NCBI GenBank assembly: GCA_002256025.1
Contig: NKIB01000051.1
Location: 1 to 35,667 of the forward strand
Direction: 5' to 3'
DNA length: 35,667 nucleotides
DNA from: Asterionella formosa
Taxonomy: Eukaryota
This document shows, piece after piece, positions 1,915 through 20,164 of this stretch (position 1 is its first letter; the number at the start of each line of letters is the position of its first letter). The notes beneath the pieces were generated by a model that searched no databases, was not told the origin of the DNA, and saw only the letters and a list, made by a program, of their open reading frames with translations. The position numbers and the translations under genes were made by a program.

Positions 1915-3408
1915 AATATTTTATGATTTGTACCATTTGAAAATTTTGTATGACTCCCGCTAATTGAGGGGCTTAATTAAATTACTTACTTGTAGGTACA
2001 AGAATTGATGCGGAAAAATTCAAAGACAGTACATCAGGTCATGGAAAACAATGTTTTCCTCATGCATTGTATATATTTGAATTATGTATAAGCTTAATTG
2101 ATGATAGTATACACATTATGTGCATATATTTATACATTTTCAAATTCTTATAAATGTACACATATCCTATCTATACATTTGAAATCATGTTTAGAGGTTC
2201 CTTGTTATGCATACCGGTAGCACATGATCCTGAAATGAAAGATCATCTCTGCACTGTGACAAGGAAAACTGAAAGAACGACGCTTCAACGCACCCAATGA
2301 TGATAAACCTTTCGGCTTAGAAGGATTGAAAATGGAAAAGTGAACTGAATCTAGCTATGGTATGTCAAGAGTACATGCCAAGGTGATCAATTGTTGGGTT
2401 CACAAAGACAAAATGATTGCCTCCTTCCCTAGCAATTCAAAAGCACATTTCGCATTCAGTGGGATACCACCAATGCTGACCAAAAACTTGTAAATGCTCT
2501 TGTTGGATCAATGAGCCACTGTTAGAACATCACTGACACATGTTTGTTTTTCAAACTTTCAGGATAATTTTAATCAAAGATTTTTGTTGTAAGTTATAAA
2601 TGACATTGGTGGAATGGTTTATTGATTTGTACTTATGTGACCATTGACTGACACATTATTTTACTGAATTATGCGAAAAGTTCATCGATTTCTGGTAAGT
2701 GGAGCATGCTAAAATGGGACTGCAGTATTGAGATATAAACAACATGGCTACTAACAAGCGATTAATTCCTTCTCATTTTCATTATGATTAGGAAATCAAA
2801 ATAGATAAAACAGAATCGGATCAAAAGGAAATGGGATTTGCAGCATGAAGTCAGATGGGTTTCAGAGTCTGAGTGGAAGGGAGGCGGGAGGCATGCATCA
2901 AGAGATTTGAAGGCAGGATGCAATGCATCCTCAAGAGCATTGAAGGGAAGCAGGAGGCATGTATCCTTAAGAGCATTGAAGGGAGTTGGGGGAGGCATGC
3001 ATCCTCAAGAGCATTAAAGGGAGGCAGGAGGCATGCATCAAGAGCATTGAGACAAGAATAGAAAATGGGAACATTGGCTGTTTAACCTCACAAAATGTAG
3101 AAACATAAAATTGATTTCGTGATATAACAGTAAAATTACAATCCTTTTCAACCTATTTTTAACAGCTATTTCGATTAGAGTTACCATCATATCAGGCAGG
3201 ATAGGTATATGATAAAGGAAATACATCATAGGATAATATTTTGATAATTATATGGTGGTTTGATCATTATGAGTAAGCTTAGCCTGTTCACTTTCATAGT
3301 ATGCATTCATTTATCATACATATAACGAAAAATGTATCATGCACAGAAAAATTCTGTGCCAGTTATCGTATGATACCCCTGATTGTATAAGTACGATTTT
3401 TTATTTAC
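1915..3408 (+). mobile_element. Inserted fragment of an unknown repeat family, homologous to 24343-26005 (inverted)
   Basis: Collinear shared blocks with the reverse complement of 24343-26005: acttgtaggtacaagaattga, ttccttgt.atgcata, tgtagaaacataaaa, ctgtgcca.tta...tttattt.cag. Confidence 0.75.
2876..3050 (+). repeat. Minisatellite, 5 copies of a ~33-38 bp unit (gaagggaggcaggaggcatgcatcctcaagagcatt)
   Basis: Directly visible head-to-tail degenerate units with no spacers. Confidence 0.85.
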
Positions 3409-3409
3409 A

Positions 3410-4037
3410 GGCAATGCTACTTTATGTGGCCTCTAATTCTCGTCCTAACATTGCTTTTTCTGTTCATCAGTATGCTCGCTTTTCTCATTTTCCTCATGCT
3501 ACTCATGAAATAGCAGTAAAAAAATTTGTCGGTATCTTAAAGGCAGTTTTGATCAAGGAATTAGTTTTACTCCTACTCCTGATGCCTTTGACATTGAATG
3601 TTATTGTGACAGTGACTTTGTTGGCCTCTACTGATCCAGTCTGTTCTTACTCTCGAACTGGCTATGTCATATCCCTTGCTGGATGTCCCCTCCTCTGGGT
3701 GTCCAAATTACAAACTACCACTGCACTATCTACAATGGAAGCAGAAAATCAGGCTCTTTCTGCCAGTTGTCCTACACATTGGTAAAGGTTCAGCTGTTCG
3801 ATCTTTTTCAAAAGTCTAAGAAGATAATAGTGCATGCCTGTCCCAAGCTACTATGCCAAAGATGACCCCTCATACTAAGCAGATTGCTGTAGCTTATCAT
3901 TGGTTTTGTGAATAGGTCCTTTCTGGAGTTTTCAAATTGTCAAGGTGGATACTGCAGCCAACCTTGCTGATATCTTTACAAAAGGTCTTGTGGCTGACAA
4001 ATTCACAGCTATACACAAGCAGTTATGTGGTTGGTGA
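3410..4037 (+). pseudogene. Copia RT C-terminus/RNase H pseudogene
   Basis: Motifs MLLYVASNSRPNIAFSVHQ, SRTGYVISLAGCPLLWVSKLQTTTALSTMEAE, EDNSACL, TKQIAVAYHWF, NLADIFTKGL...CGW*, with frameshifts and stops. Confidence 0.92.
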
Positions 4038-4060
4038 CTGTTTGCTCTGCTGAGGGGGAG

Positions 4061-4548
4061 AGTTGAAACAGACAAGTCAAATGAATCTTGTTTGTGTCTC
4101 CAAATTAGTCCAGTCATGACCTTTTGGGTCCAGTCATGAACATGAATCAATCTTTACTCATGCATGAATCAATCTTTGAGTCTTGTCATGAACATGAGTT
4201 GATCTACTCATGTATATGACTTAGTTTTGTTTGTTTGGTTTGCTAAAAGTTAATTCTATAAGCTCCCTTTATTTGGAAATACCAATCGAGTCAGATCTAT
4301 CCTACAACATTCTCCTAAATTCACCATGATCCTTCGATCCACTGCCTGGCACCTACGTTGCTTACTGGTAGTATATTTATCAAGATATAACAAGTCGAAC
4401 TCCTTTCAGGTTAATCTACGACTTCTCGTTCAAGTCCTTGCTTCAACTGTGAACCATTCGTCATCTTGTCCTTATAATTTTGTCTCACCATCTGCTATTT
4501 TAGTTTCATTATCTGAAGACTTTCACTTGCCATCTGTTAGTTCCAACA
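4061..4548 (+). repeat. 3' LTR of Copia A (right end approximate)
   Basis: Starts AGTTG immediately after the PPT. The candidate end is ...gttccaaca at ~4548. Confidence 0.7.
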
Positions 4549-4644
4549 AAGACAGCCACGTGTTAAATCTTTGTTTTCTCCAAATCTCAAAATAGGCAGA
4601 GGAAAGGGAAAAGCATTAATCTATTGGACTGACAAAGAAATAAG

Positions 4645-5724
4645 ATGGCCCATGACGGCGAAACATCGCCTGCCACCTATGGTATCAATCAGGAGGATAG
4701 ACACAAGACCATTGGTGTTCACGGTAGGACCCCTCTTCACATTGTTACCCCGGTACACCATGCGCCACATGGCAGATATATGGGGTTTCTGCAATGCTGC
4801 CGTATTTATCGCCGCATTCGCATCACCGCCATCCTTGTGTTTTTTAGTTTATTCATTCTATTTGGCCTCCCAGATGTAGAAAATAGGAATTGGACGTTGG
4901 CTGCAGGAGAAAGCAGACAAGTCAATCTCGGCGTCTTGAATAGGGCAGTTCACGTCACTTCAAATGTTGATGATGGTGTCAACATATACGCGCTCGATGG
5001 GGTGTGTCCAGCTTTGACAGGCCCTGTGGTTTCTATCAAAGTACTATCTGACGAGATCATTGTGGCCCCAGGAGCTTACCAATCGGTGGCCTTGTACCTT
5101 AACCAAGGTAGTTATGTAAATATGACGTTTCTCCTTCAGTCTGGCGCCTTGAGAGTGCTTCTTAAAGGCCCATTTGTAAGCCTTTCCCGAAATACGCCCA
5201 TCGATCAGGATTATGATACAAACAATTTCATCCTTGCTGATCTATATACAGACAAGGTAGATGAGACAACCGGTATAGAATTCAAGGCCTCAATGTCTGA
5301 TGACTATACCTTGCTCTTTGTTAACGACGGAAATGTCACTGGCAAGTTGAGCGCAACATATGAAGAAAATCTGACTTCTTTTGATTTGACAGACAAACAG
5401 CCCATTGCCTGTGGAGCGACACAATGCAGAATTAGTTTGTTGAGTGGTTCACATGACTGCGTTATAGTTCAGGCCAAGGAATTGGTCACCGTTAACATTA
5501 CCTCAAATCCCTTTTGGTTTGTGATTGTCTTATTGGCAGCAGTGCCTCTTGGGATTTTATATTTGTTCTTGAAGATGGAGAAAATGTACTGTACACCGCT
5601 GGCTGTTGTTTCAAGTCCAAATTTACCAGAATATGAAATTGTAAGAACATCGGATCCTATCTATGCAGCGCCAGATGGAAGCTCCCTACCTGTGGCCACC
5701 CCCGTTGGTTGGAATATTGTGTAA
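4645..5724 (+). CDS. Membrane protein, 359 aa, two predicted TM segments; weakly resembles the APD1-4 E3 ligase N-terminal/middle region without a RING
   Basis: Intact ORF with hydrophobic segments ITAILVFFSLFILFGL and FWFVIVLLAAVPLGILYLFL and a YLNQGS motif. The family call is from memory only. Confidence 0.7.
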   Translation: MAHDGETSPATYGINQEDRHKTIGVHGRTPLHIVTPVHHAPHGRYMGFLQCCRIYRRIRITAILVFFSLFILFGLPDVENRNWTLAAGESRQVNLGVLNRAVHVTSNVDDGVNIYALDGVCPALTGPVVSIKVLSDEIIVAPGAYQSVALYLNQGSYVNMTFLLQSGALRVLLKGPFVSLSRNTPIDQDYDTNNFILADLYTDKVDETTGIEFKASMSDDYTLLFVNDGNVTGKLSATYEENLTSFDLTDKQPIACGATQCRISLLSGSHDCVIVQAKELVTVNITSNPFWFVIVLLAAVPLGILYLFLKMEKMYCTPLAVVSSPNLPEYEIVRTSDPIYAAPDGSSLPVATPVGWNIV

Positions 5725-6380
5725 ACGAGATTACAATATTCAAGTCTATAACTACAAGCGATTTGGTTGAGCGCAAGTGATGGATTCTTGCGCACTTCTG
5801 TTTTCAAAGGGACATTTTTCAAGCCAGTAACATTTCCTCAAGTTTTCATTTATCACTGTTGATGGATGCATGGCTGGTAAAATATTTCAGGGTATTTTAA
5901 AAATGAAATAATAGTTTGCCAATTTTGATGATATACACTTTTTTCTGCATGTTGTATATTAGACCTGAAAATAAACTAACATGCACTCATATCATAATGT
6001 GCACCATGAGTCTTGCTGGGACAGCTATGGAGAATCAATGGATGTGGAATGGGTCTCTCAAGTGGTCAATATTGAATGCACACAATCAACTTGAATAGGT
6101 GAAAAAAACAAAATTACTGCCTTGATGAGGATGGGGAAACGCGTCATCAGTAGTGGGCAAATCTCTGAAATCGACTAGTTTACTGAGCTGCTCATCTGTA
6201 CGGGTACAACTAATGAGAATCAAAGAGCAGGGCCATAAACGATTGTTCAAGACAATGATATAGATCAAACAGGGTGTTGACAAGACCATGTCGGCGAGTT
6301 GTGTGGTGGTTATAGCAAATGATGTGGTTGGGGTAGCATATAACATATATTCCCTCATACTATCATATTCGTACATCTCT

Positions 6381-7103
6381 TTATGTAATTCTTGACGTTT
6401 CACCAACCAGCGTGCTAAACTCCTTGTCATAGTGACCACTGTCAGTAGGTGGCAACTCCACCAAATCCAAATACCTGTCCAAAATGTCCAAGGCTTCCAA
6501 AAACTTTCTTTGAGCTGCCGGATCGCTTGTCTTTGGGTTTTTGACTACCATCTTCTCCATGTCATCCATGGTCTTGAAAAACGCCTTTGCAGCCTTAACA
6601 GTAGGCAAATTGTCAGGAGCTTTGACCTGATTTAAACGAAAGGCGTTACCCAGCAAATACATACTGGCCTTCATATCATTGTATCTAGAGTCTCTGATTT
6701 CTTTTCCCTTGCAGTCTCCATCCTTTTTGGTACATTGTCCGTTGACATCCTTTCTCTTGGCTTCCACTACGACAGTCCCTTGTACATCAAAGAAATGCTG
6801 GATTTCTGGTTTCGTCATGTCACCCGCAATGACAGCAGGACCCATGATGAGAAATTCATGAACTGCTTGCTGTACGCGCCCGTAGTAACGGCGCTTGGCT
6901 ATAGGAATCGTCGTGTATTTACCCGCAGTGGCGCCACCAGATGCCAACGAGGGAACAGAGGAGGCGATCCAAGCCGTCGTTGCAATGGTGGTTTGGAGAA
7001 AAACTCGTCGCTCGATATGAGGCGTGGGATCCTTGACAGAGAAGGAACTACAAGTGCCAAGTAGCATGGCGAGACAGGGGAAAAGAGCCGTTCTCGTCCT
7101 CAT
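6381..7103 (-). CDS. Putative thylakoid-lumen protein (240 aa) of unknown function
   Basis: From the ATG at 7103: signal peptide MRTRTALFPCLAMLLGTCSS-F, then a twin-arginine RRVFL, a hydrophobic stretch and an S-L-A cleavage site, followed by a helical mature domain. Confidence 0.8.
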   Translation of the reverse strand: MRTRTALFPCLAMLLGTCSSFSVKDPTPHIERRVFLQTTIATTAWIASSVPSLASGGATAGKYTTIPIAKRRYYGRVQQAVHEFLIMGPAVIAGDMTKPEIQHFFDVQGTVVVEAKRKDVNGQCTKKDGDCKGKEIRDSRYNDMKASMYLLGNAFRLNQVKAPDNLPTVKAAKAFFKTMDDMEKMVVKNPKTSDPAAQRKFLEALDILDRYLDLVELPPTDSGHYDKEFSTLVGETSRIT

Positions 7104-8259
7104 GATAGAAGCAAGGTTTCTGGTTATATGCTTCCGAAGCTGTGATTGGCGTTCTGAAGAAAGAAGTAGAAAAGATTTTGGATCCACCTGCTTATAACTT
7201 ATTCTTATACCTCGAACCAGTACCTGGTACCCTGGTCAACCTAGTTCGTAACTATCCCTGGTACCAGGTACCAGGTACCGGTACTGGGATCTGGGGTGTA
7301 CCTGAAACTCGTTCAATGTACGATAGAGCCTTATCGGAAAAGATGGCTGACACCAAGACCTCAATTAACGTATTTGTACCGTCAGAGTTATTTATGTGAT
7401 GTTCATACGAACCCCAAGCACAATGAGACGACGAGCGCAGGCAAACGTTCAGCCCATGCATGTGGCAGTCGAGAGCCCGTAACGATGACGTTGATCGAAC
7501 TGATCAGCCAGCATGCCACAGATACCGGTACCCTGATACCTGCAAGTTGCCGTCATTTTGCCGAAACTGAAACGCGGCGCCGGCAGGCACTCAAATTCGA
7601 CTCCTCGGGTAATATTTCCGTACCTGGTACCTGGTACCTGGTAACGGGTAACTGGTATTGGTACTATAGAAATCTTAATGGTTTCACCCTGGCCAATTAA
7701 TATCAATATATGATCAAAATCTAAATTTGAAGAATGATTTTCTGAAAAAACCAGTTTCCAAATCTTGCTACCGATACTACGATTGGTGGGTTTCGGATTG
7801 GGGTTTTTCCCCCCAAGCACAATTCTGAGTGTCAAGATTCCTTATTCCAGAAATCTCCTCGTTTACTGCTATGTATATGCATTTCACTAGTACCAGTATG
7901 AATGTAAGGCTGAAACTTACTGTGCCCGAAATACAAAGATCAAATATTGTAAAGCTATCATGGCAAAATCTTCGATCTTTGTATTCGGGAAATTTTATGG
8001 CCACCTTGCAGTCCCGAAGATAAAATAGTATGTCAATCCATGCGTCAAATGACCAATCTTGTGAATTGAAATTTATTTCCTACATGAAAATTGGTAGAAT
8101 TGTCCATAGGAATATTATAGTAATTAAAATAATAATAATAATAATAATTGTCAACACTCAACGCTCCATTGCTGTCATTGCTGTTGTTGTAGCAAGATTG
8201 GCCTTCACATCAGCCTATCTCCTTTCTCCTCTCCAACCACCAGCATCTCCCTACTGTCA

Positions 8260-9579: not shown

Positions 9580-10760
9580 TTGTTCCATCTTTTACGAAAT
9601 TCTTCATAATAATCAACAAGTTGTTGAACTCTATTCCACCATTGGCTTTGTTTACCAGCAACTGTTTCATTAAAGTAGCTGTGTGAAGTATCATTCAATT
9701 CCATGCAGTCACCTTGCACAGTATGTACAGTATGCTGTGTCTCAGAACTTTCACAGTCAAGAAGGTAACCATCACATTCTTATAGAATGTTATCAAGCAT
9801 ACAGCATGACGTGAACGCATTTTCGATATGCTCAGGTCCAAGTTGTTCCAGTTCTTAAGAAAAAACCATCGACTTTTCAATATACCAAAAGTACATTCAA
9901 TATCTTTTCGAAAAGACTCCACCATCATACCCCATGCCCTATCTTTTCCATTTTCATTGCCATATTTAATTGGACAAATCAACAACGGCCATCATAGGTA
10001 CTCTCCATCACAAATGATGAAATAGTAGCCTTTACAAGTAATAGACGACTCAACAGTGAGCACATTCCACTCTTAACTGCCAAGAAACGAATTTCTATCG
10101 TGTAGATTGGAAACAGCAGCATCAAACTTTACTATGTGTTTGTCATTTCTTGTTCCTCGGTGTAGGTAGCTGATTGATAAATCTTTCTTCTGTGATCAGA
10201 AACCACCTCAAAAACAACTGAAGGATAACCCTTGGAACCTTTAAATATATTCTTCCAGTAGGTGGGACATCGATTCCACCCAATGTACACACAATCGACA
10301 GAGCCTATACAGCCTGGAAGCCCAAGGGAACTGTAATCATTAAGAATTCCTTCAAATTGTTCATCATCTTCCTCTTCCTCTTTCTCTCTCAGTGTGTATA
10401 CATTTTCATCCTTCTTTTCTGCAAACTTTGAAGTCCAGTGAATGAAAAATTTTCTGTGTACCTCTTGTTTAGAGATATCAGTTTGAATGTTCACATACAA
10501 ATGGGAAACACCGGTTGCTATAGTGTAAAGAACACCATGTAGGAGCAACTCAAGGGCCTTGCACAGAAGATTGGTGCAATCTTCTTCCCTGTGCGGATCA
10601 TACCAACTATTTGATATTGTCATATCATACAGTTTCAAGAATATGTCGAATGGAAGACAAAACAGTTGTAAAAGAGTCTTTCTTCCCATGTGTTCATGTC
10701 CAATTGTAAGATGCGCTTTTCGTTTGTTAGGAACTTCTTCCACTAACATGACTCTTCCCT
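9580..10760 (-). pseudogene. PIF/Harbinger DDE transposase pseudogene
   Basis: Motifs GLPGCIGSVDCVYIGW.RCP, KGSKGYPS, IICDGEY and ESFRKDIECTFGILKSRW, split by frameshifts and stops. Confidence 0.92.
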
Positions 10761-11822
10761 TGACACCAGAGGTTGTTTAATTCCTTTGTCGCTTAGTAAA
10801 TGTTGTTGGATGGCGATTGCTGTTGGACGGCAATTGCTGATTCCCTCTTTCAGATTGAACTTCCAAATGGAACTGAGAAACCAGCTCATTTCGCAACGCA
10901 GCTGGCAAGGCTGCTGGTAGTTCCCATGACAACCATTGTTGCTTCCATGGCTGCACACACTGTTGAAAATGTGCCAGGAAGGTTGACGATAGCGTTGGCG
11001 GAGTTGTTATGTTAGAAATTATTATTATCATAATAAAAATATAAAAGTATTTAATAATGACAATAATACTACAATAGAAGTATCGAATACTATATCATCA
11101 GTATAGGTGATGACGATTATATATTGTTTCCGCCATTCTGATTGGTGCAAACAATCTTCGTTTGCCCGAAGATCAATCTTTGGGAAACGAAGATTGTTCA
11201 AGAAAACACGAAGATTGGGTCAATATCGGTGATGACCCTCGAAATATTCAGGCGAACGAAGATTAATCTTCATAATTGGGGGGGATTTGCGAGTTATTTA
11301 GCCCGTAAGGACGAAAATACGAAGATTAAACGCCGAACAGGTATCTGGGCGACTCAATCTTCGTAATTTGGGCACTGTAAGACGGGGTCTGAAGAAGTGG
11401 AAACTGCTGTGGTACATACCGGTTGGTAACGTATGCATTACATGAACATGCCAGTAGTAAACAACATGCATGATGTTCTATGCACTGCCTGTACATACAT
11501 AAATAATTATACAATCACTGGCAAATCGAACATGAGAAATTGGCCCCCTCCAAAAATTATCAGCAATACTGGCAAGTATCCTTTCTGTTGTCACTGATAA
11601 AATAACTGAAAGTACACAAGCATGGCACTAATTTTAGCACCACATATTAAATTTCAGTTTGGCATGGCTGTGCAGCACCACAACATTTGTTTTCAATGTT
11701 TACAGCCATCATGTGCGAAAAGCATCACGGTGATGTCTTGAACCTACTATGTCAGGCACCCACCATGCTGGCTGAACTTATGCAAGGAGATTTTGGTTCA
11801 AATGTATTTTCAACAGATTCCT

Positions 11823-11995
11823 GGGGAATAGCTTAGTTGGTTAGCTCACCTTCCGAGGTGGCGGGTTCGATTCCCGCATTCTCCACCTGCTTTCAAGCAG
11901 GTCTAAGGCCCTCTGGGGGGCCAAGTGCGACTTCACAACCTCCACAATTGTCGAGTTCTCTAACAATAGCGTACTATAAAATTTACTTAATCATT
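11823..11995 (+). mobile_element. tRNA-Ala-derived SINE-like insertion (173 bp) with 18-bp TSD
   Basis: A box TAGCTTAGTTGG (11829-11840) and B box GGTTCGATTCC (11864-11874). Acceptor stem GGGGAAT/ATTCTCC-A. Direct repeat tattttcaacagattcct at 11805-11822 and 11996-12013. Confidence 0.85.
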
Positions 11996-12189
11996 TATTT
12001 TCAACAGATTCCTCAAGTTCTGACGTTGTCCAGGCTTGTTAGGAAATTGTACAATGTAAGCGAAAGCGTGATCAGGTCTTCAATCTGTTGTACCAAGGCG
12101 ACACCTTGGAACAAAATATTTCTATAATCTATAATAAATTCCTCTAAGAAATTGTCATGTAAAATAATAATCTGCATTAAATTTATTTC

Positions 12190-13380
12190 ATGTAGTTCCA
12201 TCCTTCTCCGCTCAATATTAGCTGGAGGTCGTTGCAACCCCATGTTACAAATCCTGTAAAGAATGACATCTGGAATGACAGAACTGACAGTCATTGTATC
12301 TTATCTCTCAAAAGTAGGCAAATATCCCCTATCAAGAGGAGAATTAGTGACTGGGGTGATTTCAGCTAAAAGCTGCTGGATGTTGCCTGTCTCATCACTT
12401 TCACTTAGTAACCCTGACAAGTCATTTATCAAAAAGATTCATTTATGGCATTATTGTGTAGTTGTGCATTAACCTCAAGATCTTTTGCTGTTGTTGCCAA
12501 GCCAATTATTCAGTTACATTTCAGAACACCTCATTTTGTCTGTAACAAAAGAAATGCCATTTCTATCCTGATTGTTAGTTGGGAAAGAGAAAAATGTTCG
12601 GCATCTTGTGTACAGTCATCACGCTGGGAACCAACAAATGGAACTAACATGACATCTAACAATGTGTAGACAGTATCACCAATAAGTTAGCTAGAACTAA
12701 ATCAGGTGATGCAATTTGGTTGGGAAGGGAGGTTCTCTCAAATGCACCTTGATTGCAGCTGAATCTTCTAGGAGCAATCACACCAAAGAAAACAAAGCTA
12801 ATCTCAAGCTCACAGACTGCTTGACAATTGATCCCATATCATGTCATGTAATGATGGACTTAATAAAAAGCCCCTGGATTTTTCCAGTTACCTAGCATGG
12901 GGCGACTTTTTGTGGCAAGGAAACCATCAATGGCACCAACACAAGCCAATTTGATCAAATCATTCCTTGTTTCTGGGCAAACAATTTTATGATCATCACA
13001 GTAAAATGAATTTTCAAGGAATAGATCTTAGCATCTATATATTGCAGCAATTTTGCATCCATAGGCATGTCAAATTTTGATGTAGCTACCACCAGCCAAC
13101 CATTGAATGCCAATGGCCAACACGATTTCTGGATAAATTGGATCAGATGACCTACACTTTAATTATAATTTTCTGTAACCTCACTCCCTAGTAAGGAAAC
13201 CAACTTTTTGAAAGCTCGAAGGGGCATTCTATATGTCTTCTCAAAAGCGTTATCATGACTGAGCTTTTCGACATGAGAGTGCCTTGAGATTCTGTCATGT
13301 TTCCATTTGGCCTTCTTTTTTGTCACCAGTAAACATGTTCCATGAACATACATAGTATATAGAACAATTAATAATATTTA
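12190..13380 (-). pseudogene. Second, older PIF/Harbinger transposase pseudogene
   Basis: Motifs FEKTYRMPLRAFKKLVSLL, ACVGAIDGFL, YGINCQAVC, LIGDTVY, LSQLTIRIEMAF and QLHN across several frames. Confidence 0.85.
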
Positions 13381-17207: not shown

Positions 17208-19229
17208 TCAGTTTAGTGTTTCAAAGTCTGGTAGGGGAGTTGCCCATCCATCTCGTTCAGGCAACAATTGGTAAGTCTCTTGCAATCTGGCCGTGATTAC
17301 TCCTCGTTCACCATTGCCGATGACCCGTCCATCAATCTTCGTGACGGGCGTCAATTCTCCCATCGTCCCTGTGGTAAAGACTTCATCGGCCGAATGGAAT
17401 TCTGACAAGGATATGCGTCGCACTTCACATGGAATTCCCAACTCTGCGGCCAAGGTAATGACAGTTTGGCGAGTAATTCCTGGTAGACAGTGATCGGCAT
17501 GAGGTGTCATCAAGACCCCATCGTCTACCAAAAACAAATTGGTGGCATTGGTTTCACTGACATATCCATCAACATCCAACATGATGGCATCAGCACATCC
17601 TGCCAAATTGGCTTGTATCTTTGGTAAAATGTTATTAATCAGATTGTTGTGATGAATTTTGCTGTCAACTGTATCGGGACGATTCCGTCGTTGACTGGCA
17701 GTAATGAGAGAAATTCCATTTCTATTGTCGTAGGTTGTGGCGCCTTCGGTTGGCTTCCATTCGGGTAAGATAATGAGAGTCGTCCCATAAATGTTAAATA
17801 CTGGATTCATGGACGACGTGCACTTTTCCCCTCGAGTCAAGGTCAATCTCATGTGCGCACCATCTCTCATTCCGTTGGCCGCTAATACGCGAAATATACT
17901 TTCAACAACTTCTTCTTTCGTATGAACTTTCTCAAATCCCAATGCCTTGGCTGACTTGAACAATCGTCTCAAGTGCTTGTCCAAGGACAAAATCTTTCCG
18001 CGATAGACTCTCAGCCCTTCCCAGGCAGCGTCACCGCCTTGTACTGATGAATCAAATGGACTCACGCCAGCCATGTCTCTTGGAAGCAACCTTCCTCGAC
18101 CAGGTGTTCCGATCCAAACTAGTAAATCCGCATTGCGTGCATCTTCGTACACCATAGTTGGGCGAGTGAAAATTTGGGAGTGAAGAAATGCATAGGCTGG
18201 CATGGATGCTCGCAGGGCCGATACCAGTGTTGGATCGAGAGTACGGTATTTGGAAAGAGGGGCCATGTGTGATTTTCGAACCCAACCTGTCGATTTGTGA
18301 ACATCATCGTACCACCATTTGGCCCATGGTCCATCACATGCTTTCGGTCCTGCGGGCCATGTGAGCATGGCATCGGTGTACTCAATGCCCAATTCTGCAC
18401 ATAGGTGGCCAAGTGTCCCCGATGGATCCGATGCAAGGTCGTCGCTGTCCAATAGGACCACCGGAAGTGTTGAATGAGACGTGAGTGTACTGTAAATGGC
18501 CAATAGGGGAATAATCCCCACTTCGTCTGTACTGGGCGAGTTGCCATGCACGTGCGAAGAGTTTGACCACGAACTGAGCACAGCGACGGGATCTCTAATC
18601 AGCAAGACGTGGCGTTGAATGATCTCAACGTTGCGTGGAGCCTCCAAGAACATGTCTTGTTCTAGGTCATACAGGCCACTATGTTTGGCCATGTGCTTGC
18701 AAAAAATAATACCCGATGCTCGTCCTGATAGGGCCTCGATTCCGTCTAGAATTCGCTGCTGCATGGACAGCTGCTCTCGTTGCCACTTGTCCACATTCGC
18801 TCCATCTGGCGAGGTCCCATCCATCATGCTAGCGAGGTAGGGTCGTTCCACGGAGTGTCCCTTTTGAATGAGCCATTCTCGATAGAGAGGTTCGTCCAGG
18901 GCGATCGTATCGTCTCCTCTGGCTTCAAAGCTGTAGAGCAGGGCTGTGCTGCGAGAGCGAGGTGCTGACCAGCAGTGGACAACTGTAATGGTGGCGGCGG
19001 ACGAATGATCCGACATGGTGTCTCGAATGACGGAGGACGAATCGGTACTAAAGCACAGCGACCGATGAAGGCCATGACGCCTGCGGGTTGGGACAACAAC
19101 ATCAAGATCAGCAGTCTCTGGGTTTGTTGATGCTGGAGGGAGACCCCGACCATCACTCTCTTGGTCGTTCTTGTTCAAGTTAGGGTCGTTCTTGTTCAAG
19201 TTAGAATCATAGTAATTGTTCTCCATCAT
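17208..19229 (-). CDS. Fusion of an N-terminal sulfotransferase-like P-loop domain and a class IV PLP aminotransferase (BCAT-like protein type); start at 19229 or 19016
   Basis: N domain: WSAPRSRSTALLYSF, DEPLY, KHMAKH, LLIRDP. C domain: FDSSVQGGDAAWEGLR, HLRRL, SKIHHNNL, ETNATNLF, LPGITR, ADEVFTTGTMGELTPV. Confidence 0.92.
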   Translation of the reverse strand: MMENNYYDSNLNKNDPNLNKNDQESDGRGLPPASTNPETADLDVVVPTRRRHGLHRSLCFSTDSSSVIRDTMSDHSSAATITVVHCWSAPRSRSTALLYSFEARGDDTIALDEPLYREWLIQKGHSVERPYLASMMDGTSPDGANVDKWQREQLSMQQRILDGIEALSGRASGIIFCKHMAKHSGLYDLEQDMFLEAPRNVEIIQRHVLLIRDPVAVLSSWSNSSHVHGNSPSTDEVGIIPLLAIYSTLTSHSTLPVVLLDSDDLASDPSGTLGHLCAELGIEYTDAMLTWPAGPKACDGPWAKWWYDDVHKSTGWVRKSHMAPLSKYRTLDPTLVSALRASMPAYAFLHSQIFTRPTMVYEDARNADLLVWIGTPGRGRLLPRDMAGVSPFDSSVQGGDAAWEGLRVYRGKILSLDKHLRRLFKSAKALGFEKVHTKEEVVESIFRVLAANGMRDGAHMRLTLTRGEKCTSSMNPVFNIYGTTLIILPEWKPTEGATTYDNRNGISLITASQRRNRPDTVDSKIHHNNLINNILPKIQANLAGCADAIMLDVDGYVSETNATNLFLVDDGVLMTPHADHCLPGITRQTVITLAAELGIPCEVRRISLSEFHSADEVFTTGTMGELTPVTKIDGRVIGNGERGVITARLQETYQLLPERDGWATPLPDFETLN
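19163..19204. repeat. Perfect 21-bp tandem duplication
   Basis: ggtcgttcttgttcaagttag twice; in frame, encoding NLNKNDP/NLNKNDQ on the minus strand. Confidence 0.9.
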
Positions 19230-20164
19230 GGAGCAGAATATGTTCCAGCTACCTATTGAATCAGTGTGGAAAGCACCGGTAAATGCGTCCAAAGACCCTC
19301 AGTTCGAACGATGGCAATGATGTCTATGTATGTGCTGAGATGTAGAGGGCGGATGGTCAACAATTTCTCTGAATTTTGTGGTAACAGCGATGGTGACAGG
19401 AGGGACGAGAAATCACAGAATACCCGGCGGTGCGAGTGTACCGGTAGTTAGGATCGAGCAACGACTGCGATGGCATCAGGATGCGCGTGTCAGCATACCG
19501 GTACCTGTGTCCGATACATACCAGGAGGCAGGAGGGGCGATGGTCCCGGGAGTACTGTATGTACTGTAGTATAGGGACCCTAAGGTACTCTATGCAACTA
19601 AGCCAAAACCTGGTACCTGGTACCGGTACTACCACCTGGTAGTATTTCATTCACACAACACGTGTGCTCGTATTGTATGTATGATGCGATTTAGGATTCG
19701 CATTTTGTGAGCTCGGCCGCTCTATCGTACAGTCATGCGGCCGACACTGCATCACTCACACAAATAAAAAAGCATGGCGACCGGCACAACTTGTATACCA
19801 CCACTATAAAAGGCTATGAGTATGCACGTTTGCGAACTCGAGATTATGTACCGGTATCTGCCTACCAGTACACACATACATGTACAGCAGAAAATAGATT
19901 CTTTACTACCGCCGGGTACAAAAGGTTGGCCGTGCATGAACGGTAAGCACAAATCGACAATGTAAATACCGGTATGATAGGCAGCTACCGGCATAAAATA
20001 AAGCAACTTTTCTCAAATGTGTGCAGCAAAGAGAAAACTTGTGCATCATCCAAAATGCATCACTTCGTTTACTTGGAGAAAATATAAAATCGCACATACG
20101 CTAGAAATAACAAGTAGTTACAATTTGTTTTCATCATTTCCTGTTTATATTAAATGGGCCATGG

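Follow-up and report, generated by a model that had tools for sequence, protein, structure and literature searches.

The tRNA-related SINEs (SINE2/tRNA) undergo transcription by RNA polymerase III (Pol III) from an internal promoter, and a partner LINE supplies the reverse transcriptase that copies their transcripts through target-primed reverse transcription. Other eukaryotes, unicellular or filamentous, are well known to carry elements of this kind with flanking TSDs; among the oomycetes, Phytophthora infestans has families of tRNA-related SINEs. In Aspergillus fumigatus, AfuSINE2 is a tRNA-related SINE with TSDs (PMC5063351). SINEs have long been held to be absent from most unicellular eukaryotes (PMC5859163, PMC7466962, citing Kramerov and Vassetzky 2011). 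For diatoms, 13 'putative SINE' copies (1,454 bp) were given for Phaeodactylum tricornutum and called the first in a diatom (PMC5859163), the repeat classes of Cyclotella cryptica include SINEs (PMC7466962), and a SINE class is given for Pleurosigma (PMC12803021). A long-read re-annotation of P. tricornutum assigns 0.2% of the genome to SINEs and counts only two other diatoms in which they had been found earlier (PMC8147415). In the portions of this literature available to us, no structural description of a diatom SINE was found, and a related family could already be present in supplements or repeat libraries. What the available text of these reports gives is limited to classes or counts from automatic annotation, in agreement with the original prediction that SINEs are poorly documented in diatoms.

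Here, an element of this kind is described in a stretch of 35,667 bp, which was analysed over its whole length and is referred to as the window. The element very probably represents an inserted copy from a genuine family of tRNA-related SINEs in a freshwater diatom. The SINE is a known kind of element, and what is new is a family in a host group where this kind is barely documented. In common with the tRNA-related SINEs, the element is short (173 bp, the class ranging from about 80 to 600 bp) and non-coding, its head starts from tRNA position 1 and carries, at the level of the sequence, A and B boxes, its body is made of variable modules, no T4 occurs internally, and there are many dispersed copies with different flanks, the copy in the window being bordered by a TSD. 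It differs from them in having a head reduced to a mini-cloverleaf of 62 nt, with a hairpin of 5 bp and a tetraloop and with no variable arm, and in a tail made up of neither poly(A) nor simple repeats. Its TSD of 18 bp is at the long end when compared with the 4-14 bp of AfuSINE2 (PMC5063351). The 'putative SINE' annotations of other diatoms belong to the same host group and to the same nominal class. In the text available for them, and compared by description only, these annotations are automatic class labels and counts without anatomy, TSDs or a tRNA origin, whereas the element in the window allows anatomy, boundaries and a signal of high copy number to be given for one family.

An insertion between direct repeats

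The sequence TATTTTCAACAGATTCCT forms an exact 18-bp direct repeat at 11805-11822 and 11996-12013 (neither copy being assigned a strand), and these are its two occurrences in the window, with no further site elsewhere in the window when up to 3 mismatches are tolerated. At this tolerance of 3 mismatches, the two-match outcome was obtained in 0 of 100 dinucleotide shuffles. With one mismatch the repeat grows to 21 nt, 11802-11822 and 11993-12013. The insert between the two copies spans 11823-11995, and its 5' end reads GGGGAAT. Exact 18-bp direct repeats around a 173-bp insert had been predicted from the sequence, and both copies were found at the expected places.

The 18-mer is a TSD and not a part of the element, because the boundaries of the element in public contigs coincide with those inferred from the repeat, and because the flanks differ among copies. 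The left copy lies outside the repeated unit both by contig depth and by the unlike loose ends of the contigs, which are described below. No TTTT is present inside the element (11823-11995), and the first one past it, at 11998-12001, falls within the right copy of the repeat, where it is a possible Pol III terminator. Directly before the duplication, the dinucleotide AT is common to the target and to the 3' end of the element (ATG/ATT), and this could be a microhomology between primer and template.

The tRNA-like head and the promoter motifs

The head of the element (11823..11885, plus strand) has a cloverleaf-like fold of 62 nt followed by A-C-C, the A of which, at 11885, is discriminator-like. 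The first 63 nt fold with an energy of -24.9 kcal/mol (z = -2.64), which was matched by 2 of 200 shuffles. It contains an acceptor stem of 7 bp (G1-C, G2-C, G3-T, G4-C, A5-T, A6-T and T7-A), a short D arm, a hairpin and a T arm, while the variable arm is absent. The hairpin CACCT-TCCG-AGGTG (11847..11860, plus strand; 5-bp stem and 4-nt loop) replaces the anticodon and variable arms in sequence and fold, and is followed by the T arm GCGGG-TTCGATT-CCCGC (11861-11877, plus strand). The start at tRNA position 1, the intact T arm, the G3:U70 pair and the compact hairpin, all of them predicted earlier, are therefore present in the fold of the head, and the 5' boundary at 11823 is backed by loose ends of contigs in four runs.

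Pol III boxes had been predicted as well. The putative B box GGTTCGATTCC lies within the T arm at 11864..11874 of the plus strand, where the pattern search gave the sole match in the window to the consensus GGTTCGANNCC (0.11 expected; at least one match in 9 of 100 shuffles). The A-box consensus is TRGCNNAGTGG, and the A box is represented by an A-box-like Pol III motif, TAGCTTAGTTGG at 11829..11840 of the plus strand, which was read by eye against this consensus. Descent of the head from tRNA-Ala is suggested by just two features, the G3:T70 pair and the A at the discriminator position, the head having no readable anticodon. As far as can be judged from its sequence, the head appears to be a degenerate mini-tRNA that keeps the parts serving as promoter and fold (D arm with the A box, T arm with the B box, and acceptor stem), its anticodon loop having apparently contracted to 4 nt with loss of the variable arm.

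A functional tRNA-Ala gene was rejected, with no tRNA reported by ARAGORN at the default or the 80% threshold and a loop of 4 nt; at the 60% threshold the program returned a shifted and implausible tRNA call. No Rfam family reached its gathering score on the element. The best weak match, in a permissive scan of 251 bases, is to the tRNA-like domain of tmRNA (RF00023), with an E value of 3.7e-06. Membership in this family was also rejected, the score being 19.2 bits against a cut-off of 47, the alignment linking acceptor stem and T arm with 6 nt standing in place of 304 model positions, and ARAGORN reporting no tmRNA. The element and the tRNA-like domain of tmRNA share the GGGG start, the G3:U70 pair, the T arm GGGUUCGAUUCCC, the 3' strand CUCCACC and the lack of an anticodon loop. 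On the other hand, tmRNA is not known to have the D arm of the tRNA type and the A box that the element has, and the element is without pseudoknots or a tag reading frame and is nuclear, multi-copy and flanked by a TSD. The likeness to tmRNA is a resemblance of shape only, not membership.

RNAs of the mascRNA type, which RNase P and RNase Z cut from longer transcripts, are small tRNA-like cloverleaves that measure about 60 nt and in which the anticodon arm is shortened. The head of the element resembles them in size, in its cloverleaf and in the shortening of the anticodon arm, but the element is a mobile repeat and not a single conserved locus. The head might be read as a mini-tRNA with an acceptor stem of the Ala type (G3:U70, A73), a CC encoded in the genome and the anticodon arm exchanged for a tetraloop hairpin, which would be released in the manner of mascRNA or of the tmRNA domain; this is an unlikely reading. 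Under the same unlikely reading, the family would be the first of the tRNA-related SINEs of diatoms with a defined anatomy, a high copy number and recent activity, and its head would be not simply a decayed tRNA but a selected mini-tRNA of 62 nt, released by RNase P and RNase Z as a stable tRNA-like small RNA. If the mini-tRNA reading were true, the element, while a mobile repeat, would also supply an alanine-acceptor-like RNA.

Body and 3' end of the element

When the whole element is folded, its minimum-energy structure (-54.2 kcal/mol, z = -2.72) contains two hairpins downstream of the head, both on the plus strand. The first is formed by ACCTGCTT..AAGCAGGT at 11885..11902 and the second, which is GC-rich, by GGCCCTC..GGGGGCC at 11907..11922. 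The tail is AT-rich and without poly(A) or a simple repeat, so that both hairpins and the nature of the tail are as they had been described in the original prediction. The 3' module (11894..11995, plus strand), as delimited by contig alignments and by 3' loose ends, is made of body and AT-rich tail with the end ...TTAATCATT; a partner reverse transcriptase would be expected to recognise this part. The stop-to-stop frames that cross the element are all short.

Copies and boundaries in public contigs

A part of 11500-12300 is present in 20 public-run rows from 14 studies, which are mostly freshwater, lake or river metagenomes, together with one 'algae metagenome'. The contigs of four public runs (X1, X2, X6 and X12) were aligned on 11300-12500 (1201 bp) with a likeness of at least 85%, and 2487, 387, 269 and 33 contig pieces, respectively, were placed on this stretch. 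In the bins covering 11833-11996, the summed depth is 268,000-637,000 in X1, where the unique flank bins have about 915-1,075. The corresponding values are 2,087-7,642 versus 16-19 in X2, 354-1,223 versus 4-5 in X6, and 20-94 versus 3 in X12. Averaged over the four element bins, the depth of the element relative to its flanks is about 460-510-fold in X1, 250-295-fold in X2, 160-215-fold in X6 and 17-fold in X12, summed contig depth being distinct from copy number and open to contributions from related species in the metagenomes. Read within these limits, the depth points to copies on the order of tens to hundreds. On the left side, the bin 11792-11832 has a depth far under that of the element bins, and on the right side the depth of the bin 11997-12037 is about 1.5-3 times the flank level in X1, X2 and X6 and near zero in X12.

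The same boundaries are given by the places where contigs leave the alignment. Loose ends before 11822/11823 were found for 11 and 25 contigs in X1, 19 in X2, 14 in X6 and 2 in X12, and loose ends behind 11996 for 12 contigs in X1. Many contigs of X1, X2 and X6 match the stretch from 11894/5 to 11995-12001 with an identity of about 90% and continue into unlike sequence. The sequence beyond the loose ends is AT-rich and is not the 18-mer, and its consensus agreement is only 0.41-0.63, which means that the flanks differ from copy to copy. Taken together, the depth of the element bins and the unlike loose ends at 11822/11823 and 11996 show that this is a multi-copy element with these boundaries, from which the 18-mer is excluded. 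By blastn, the window itself contains one copy.

The original prediction of a multi-copy, SINE-like family had named two outcomes that would speak against it, and neither occurred. The element is not single-copy, its depth being from 17 to about 500 times that of the flanks, and the copies do not all carry the same flanking repeat. The loose-end flanks of the other copies are unlike the 18-mer, which upholds the reading of the latter as a TSD.

The 3' junction of the window copy is crossed, with at least 31 letters on each side, by record 7 of X1 (11962-12091, 0 differences) and likewise by record 31 of X6 (11945-12500). The contigs of X2 enter the element by 28 and 25 nt from either side, which is under the bar of 31 letters. 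The insertion at the window locus is real. As for an empty site, none of the 13 joints listed for X1, X2, X6 and X12 skips 11823-12013, in contigs, which drop rare variants.

Two contigs of X6 join 11996 back to 11824 or to 11838, and therefore some copies are arranged head-to-tail. These joints are what could be put forward for the element being the unit of a tandem or satellite repeat. Most contig ends, however, enter unlike AT-rich sequence on both sides, and the window copy is solitary between flanks of unique depth. An origin in assembly or chance is opposed by the finding of the junction in runs of independent studies (X1 and X6, with X2 reaching 28 and 25 nt into the element). A tandem unit, an assembly artefact or a chance feature is a very unlikely reading, and the dispersed copies are better seen as those of a SINE.

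Family structure and age of the window copy

The copies in the contigs fall into several forms. At 11893|11894, other members carry 58 extra nt (3 contigs in X1, 7 in X2, 3 in X6 and 2 in X12). This position is the tip of the hairpin 11885-11902, and it is there that other members of the family gain the 58 nt or diverge; in the long form, the stem of this hairpin would close a larger insert. Divergence after 11889 is seen in 45 contigs of X1, 25 of X2, 15 of X6 and 2 of X12, and loose ends are also found behind 11893. Loose ends before 11838 in X2 and X12 lead to other heads, ...GGGGAATGGCTTAG, with the GGGG start behind unrelated sequence, and several internal-deletion joints occur among the copies. 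The family is heterogeneous, with and without the middle segment of 58 nt and with many internal-deletion variants. The short form is also found elsewhere, in record 25 of X6 (11839-11976, 12 differences), which places at least one copy of it at another locus.

Outside these runs, a 22-mer of the 3' module gave one locus in metagenome contigs (L001), a degenerate copy on an unrelated contig. Over its 3' 85 nt the identity is 82%; the T arm is deleted in part, the tail has a gap of 10 nt, and part of the middle segment is retained. The GC-rich hairpin 11907..11922 is largely conserved in this copy, CTCTGGGGGGCC being common to both, and no TSD is detectable around it. Viral contigs gave 0 loci with three patterns, and prokaryotic genome contigs gave 0 loci with a 27-mer of the head. 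Two loci in bacterial MAGs that came up in a 19-mer search (L002, 2000-2019; L003, 2001-2021) match only 20-21 nt of the SINE body and were set aside as chance.

Thirteen variant places were listed within the element, and 7 of these are C>T or G>A changes at CpG. The changes fall on five of its seven CpGs, and the two without a listed variant are those of the T arm (11868/69 and 11875/76), one of which is inside the B box. Such decay at CpG suggests that the repeats are methylated, and the pattern fits deamination of methylated repeats with the promoter kept in the copies that propagate. Copies also vary, at roughly 4-37% of the depth, in the loop of the head hairpin and the base next to it (11852-11856).

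The copy in the window differs from the majority of the depth at one listed position, 11960, where 98% of the depth has T. The perfect TSD and this single listed difference indicate that it is a young copy, as was originally proposed. This age holds only with a qualification, and the copy is not brand new: the same insertion is present in record 31 of X6, where the differences, at 16 of 556 bases, lie entirely or almost entirely in the flank.

The anatomy of the head also bears on the possibility that a single functional Pol III gene, encoding a tRNA-like small RNA, gave rise to the copies as processed retro-pseudogenes. The family would then be the by-product of a cellular RNA that is expressed, a mini-tRNA comparable to mascRNA or to the tRNA-like domain of tmRNA, and not a self-propagating SINE with a tail of its own that matches a LINE. 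Such an origin would agree with a compact and well-folding mini-tRNA of 62 nt that has an acceptor stem of the Ala type and then A-C-C, with the tRNA-like domain of tmRNA as the best Rfam match, and with CpGs of the T arm that are free of listed decay. Yet the repeated unit runs 110 nt past the tRNA-like domain to a common 3' end at 11995/11996, and the modular subfamilies with different middles are typical of the evolution of SINEs. The score for tmRNA is also far under its cut-off, all but 6 nt of the 304-position core being skipped. This origin is improbable, and it differs only in degree from the 'master-gene' view of SINEs. A SINE family with its own 3' module remains the preferred reading.

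Proposed propagation and significance

From the general biology of tRNA-related SINEs, a mechanism can be proposed for the propagation of the family. RNA polymerase III would initiate at the first G of the head, guided by the internal A and B boxes, and transcription would pass through the 173 nt of the element, which has no TTTT, and end at the T run of the flank. The reverse transcriptase of an autonomous non-LTR retrotransposon (LINE) would then capture the RNA via the 3' module. Insertion into an AT-rich target would follow by target-primed reverse transcription of the RNA, and the duplication would measure 18 bp because the nicks would be staggered by 18 bp. The genomic copies would subsequently decay at their CpG sites, as expected for methylated repeats.

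A SINE family of a diatom for which head, body, boundaries and TSD are defined and whose copies number roughly hundreds would supply repeat libraries with a curated SINE consensus, point indirectly to an active machinery for non-LTR retrotransposition in the lineage, and yield presence/absence markers for populations of freshwater diatoms. The known picture of the function of SINEs is unchanged by it.

Host and genomic surroundings

The window contains eukaryotic genes, namely those for Kri1, UFD1 and PAP_fibrillin and an ORF with sulfotransferase and class-IV aminotransferase domains. For the UFD1 ORF, all the named relatives among the 120 listed are diatom proteins with 56-72% identity, and among the matches listed there are also unnamed metagenome proteins with up to 84-99% identity. 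These protein sequences place the host among the diatoms. A scan of 49 ORFs of the window found neither a reverse transcriptase nor an endonuclease domain. Four RNA runs contain 0.05-0.12 of the sampled words of 11500-12300, a share of words and not a measure of expression.

Genes are few around the SINE, and remains of Harbinger-type transposases occur there. A domain scan found Plant_tran (PF04827), of the Harbinger/PIF type, in two ORFs of the minus strand, at 9698-9991 and 10135-10776. With blastn of 11501-12400 on the window, only the self match was obtained, with no sign of the flanks being a host repeat, and most of the flank bins are at unique depth.

A neighbourhood rich in remains of DNA transposons (the Plant_tran/Harbinger-type ORFs at 9698-10776, minus strand) and the short segments of high depth in the flanks raise the alternative that the element is itself a non-autonomous DNA transposon, MITE or Helitron-like, with a captured tRNA-like fragment. 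Cut-and-paste transposases make duplications of 2-10 bp, a size far exceeded by the 18 bp found here. Terminal inverted repeats are absent at 11823/11995, and the six inverted pairs detected in 11000-13000 are all away from the ends of the element. A MITE or another cut-and-paste transposon was rejected because no inverted repeat involves these ends. Helitrons end in 5'-TC and 3'-CTRR, and such ends are absent as well. Furthermore, the element starts exactly at tRNA position 1, as is expected of a Pol III transcript. A DNA transposon is accordingly very unlikely, and retroposition of a SINE is the reading retained for this insertion.

Several other features of the surroundings were observed. 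The SINE is located between the Harbinger/PIF-type remains at 9698-10776 and putative ones at 12016-13377 (minus strand), just past the stop codon (12013-12015) of the ORF 12016-12300 of the minus strand. Read by eye, the ORF pieces 12531-12686 and 12860-13027 of this strand resemble a nuclease of the DDE_Tnp_4 type; no Pfam family was found at E <= 0.01 for the minus-strand ORF pieces scanned in 12016-13377.

In X1, the segments 11300-11381, 11587-11627, 12038-12119, 12161-12242 and 12325-12406 have depths 20- to 140-fold above unique. Some of the high-depth segments in the flanks are also seen in X2, X6 and X12, and these segments point to further short repeat families surrounding the SINE. 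A repeated piece of about 36 bp at 11587-11622 is delimited by loose ends of X12. At 11150-11369 there are short repeats on the motif AATCTTCG / CGAAGATT, which form five inverted pairs and two direct families. This cluster overlaps one of the high-depth segments and may be a palindromic MITE-like or microsatellite-like repeat.

Farther from the element, an uninterrupted frame of 696 aa at 17208-19298 of the minus strand carries a sulfotransferase domain (PF19798) and then a class-IV aminotransferase domain (PF01063), and is possibly a fusion protein.
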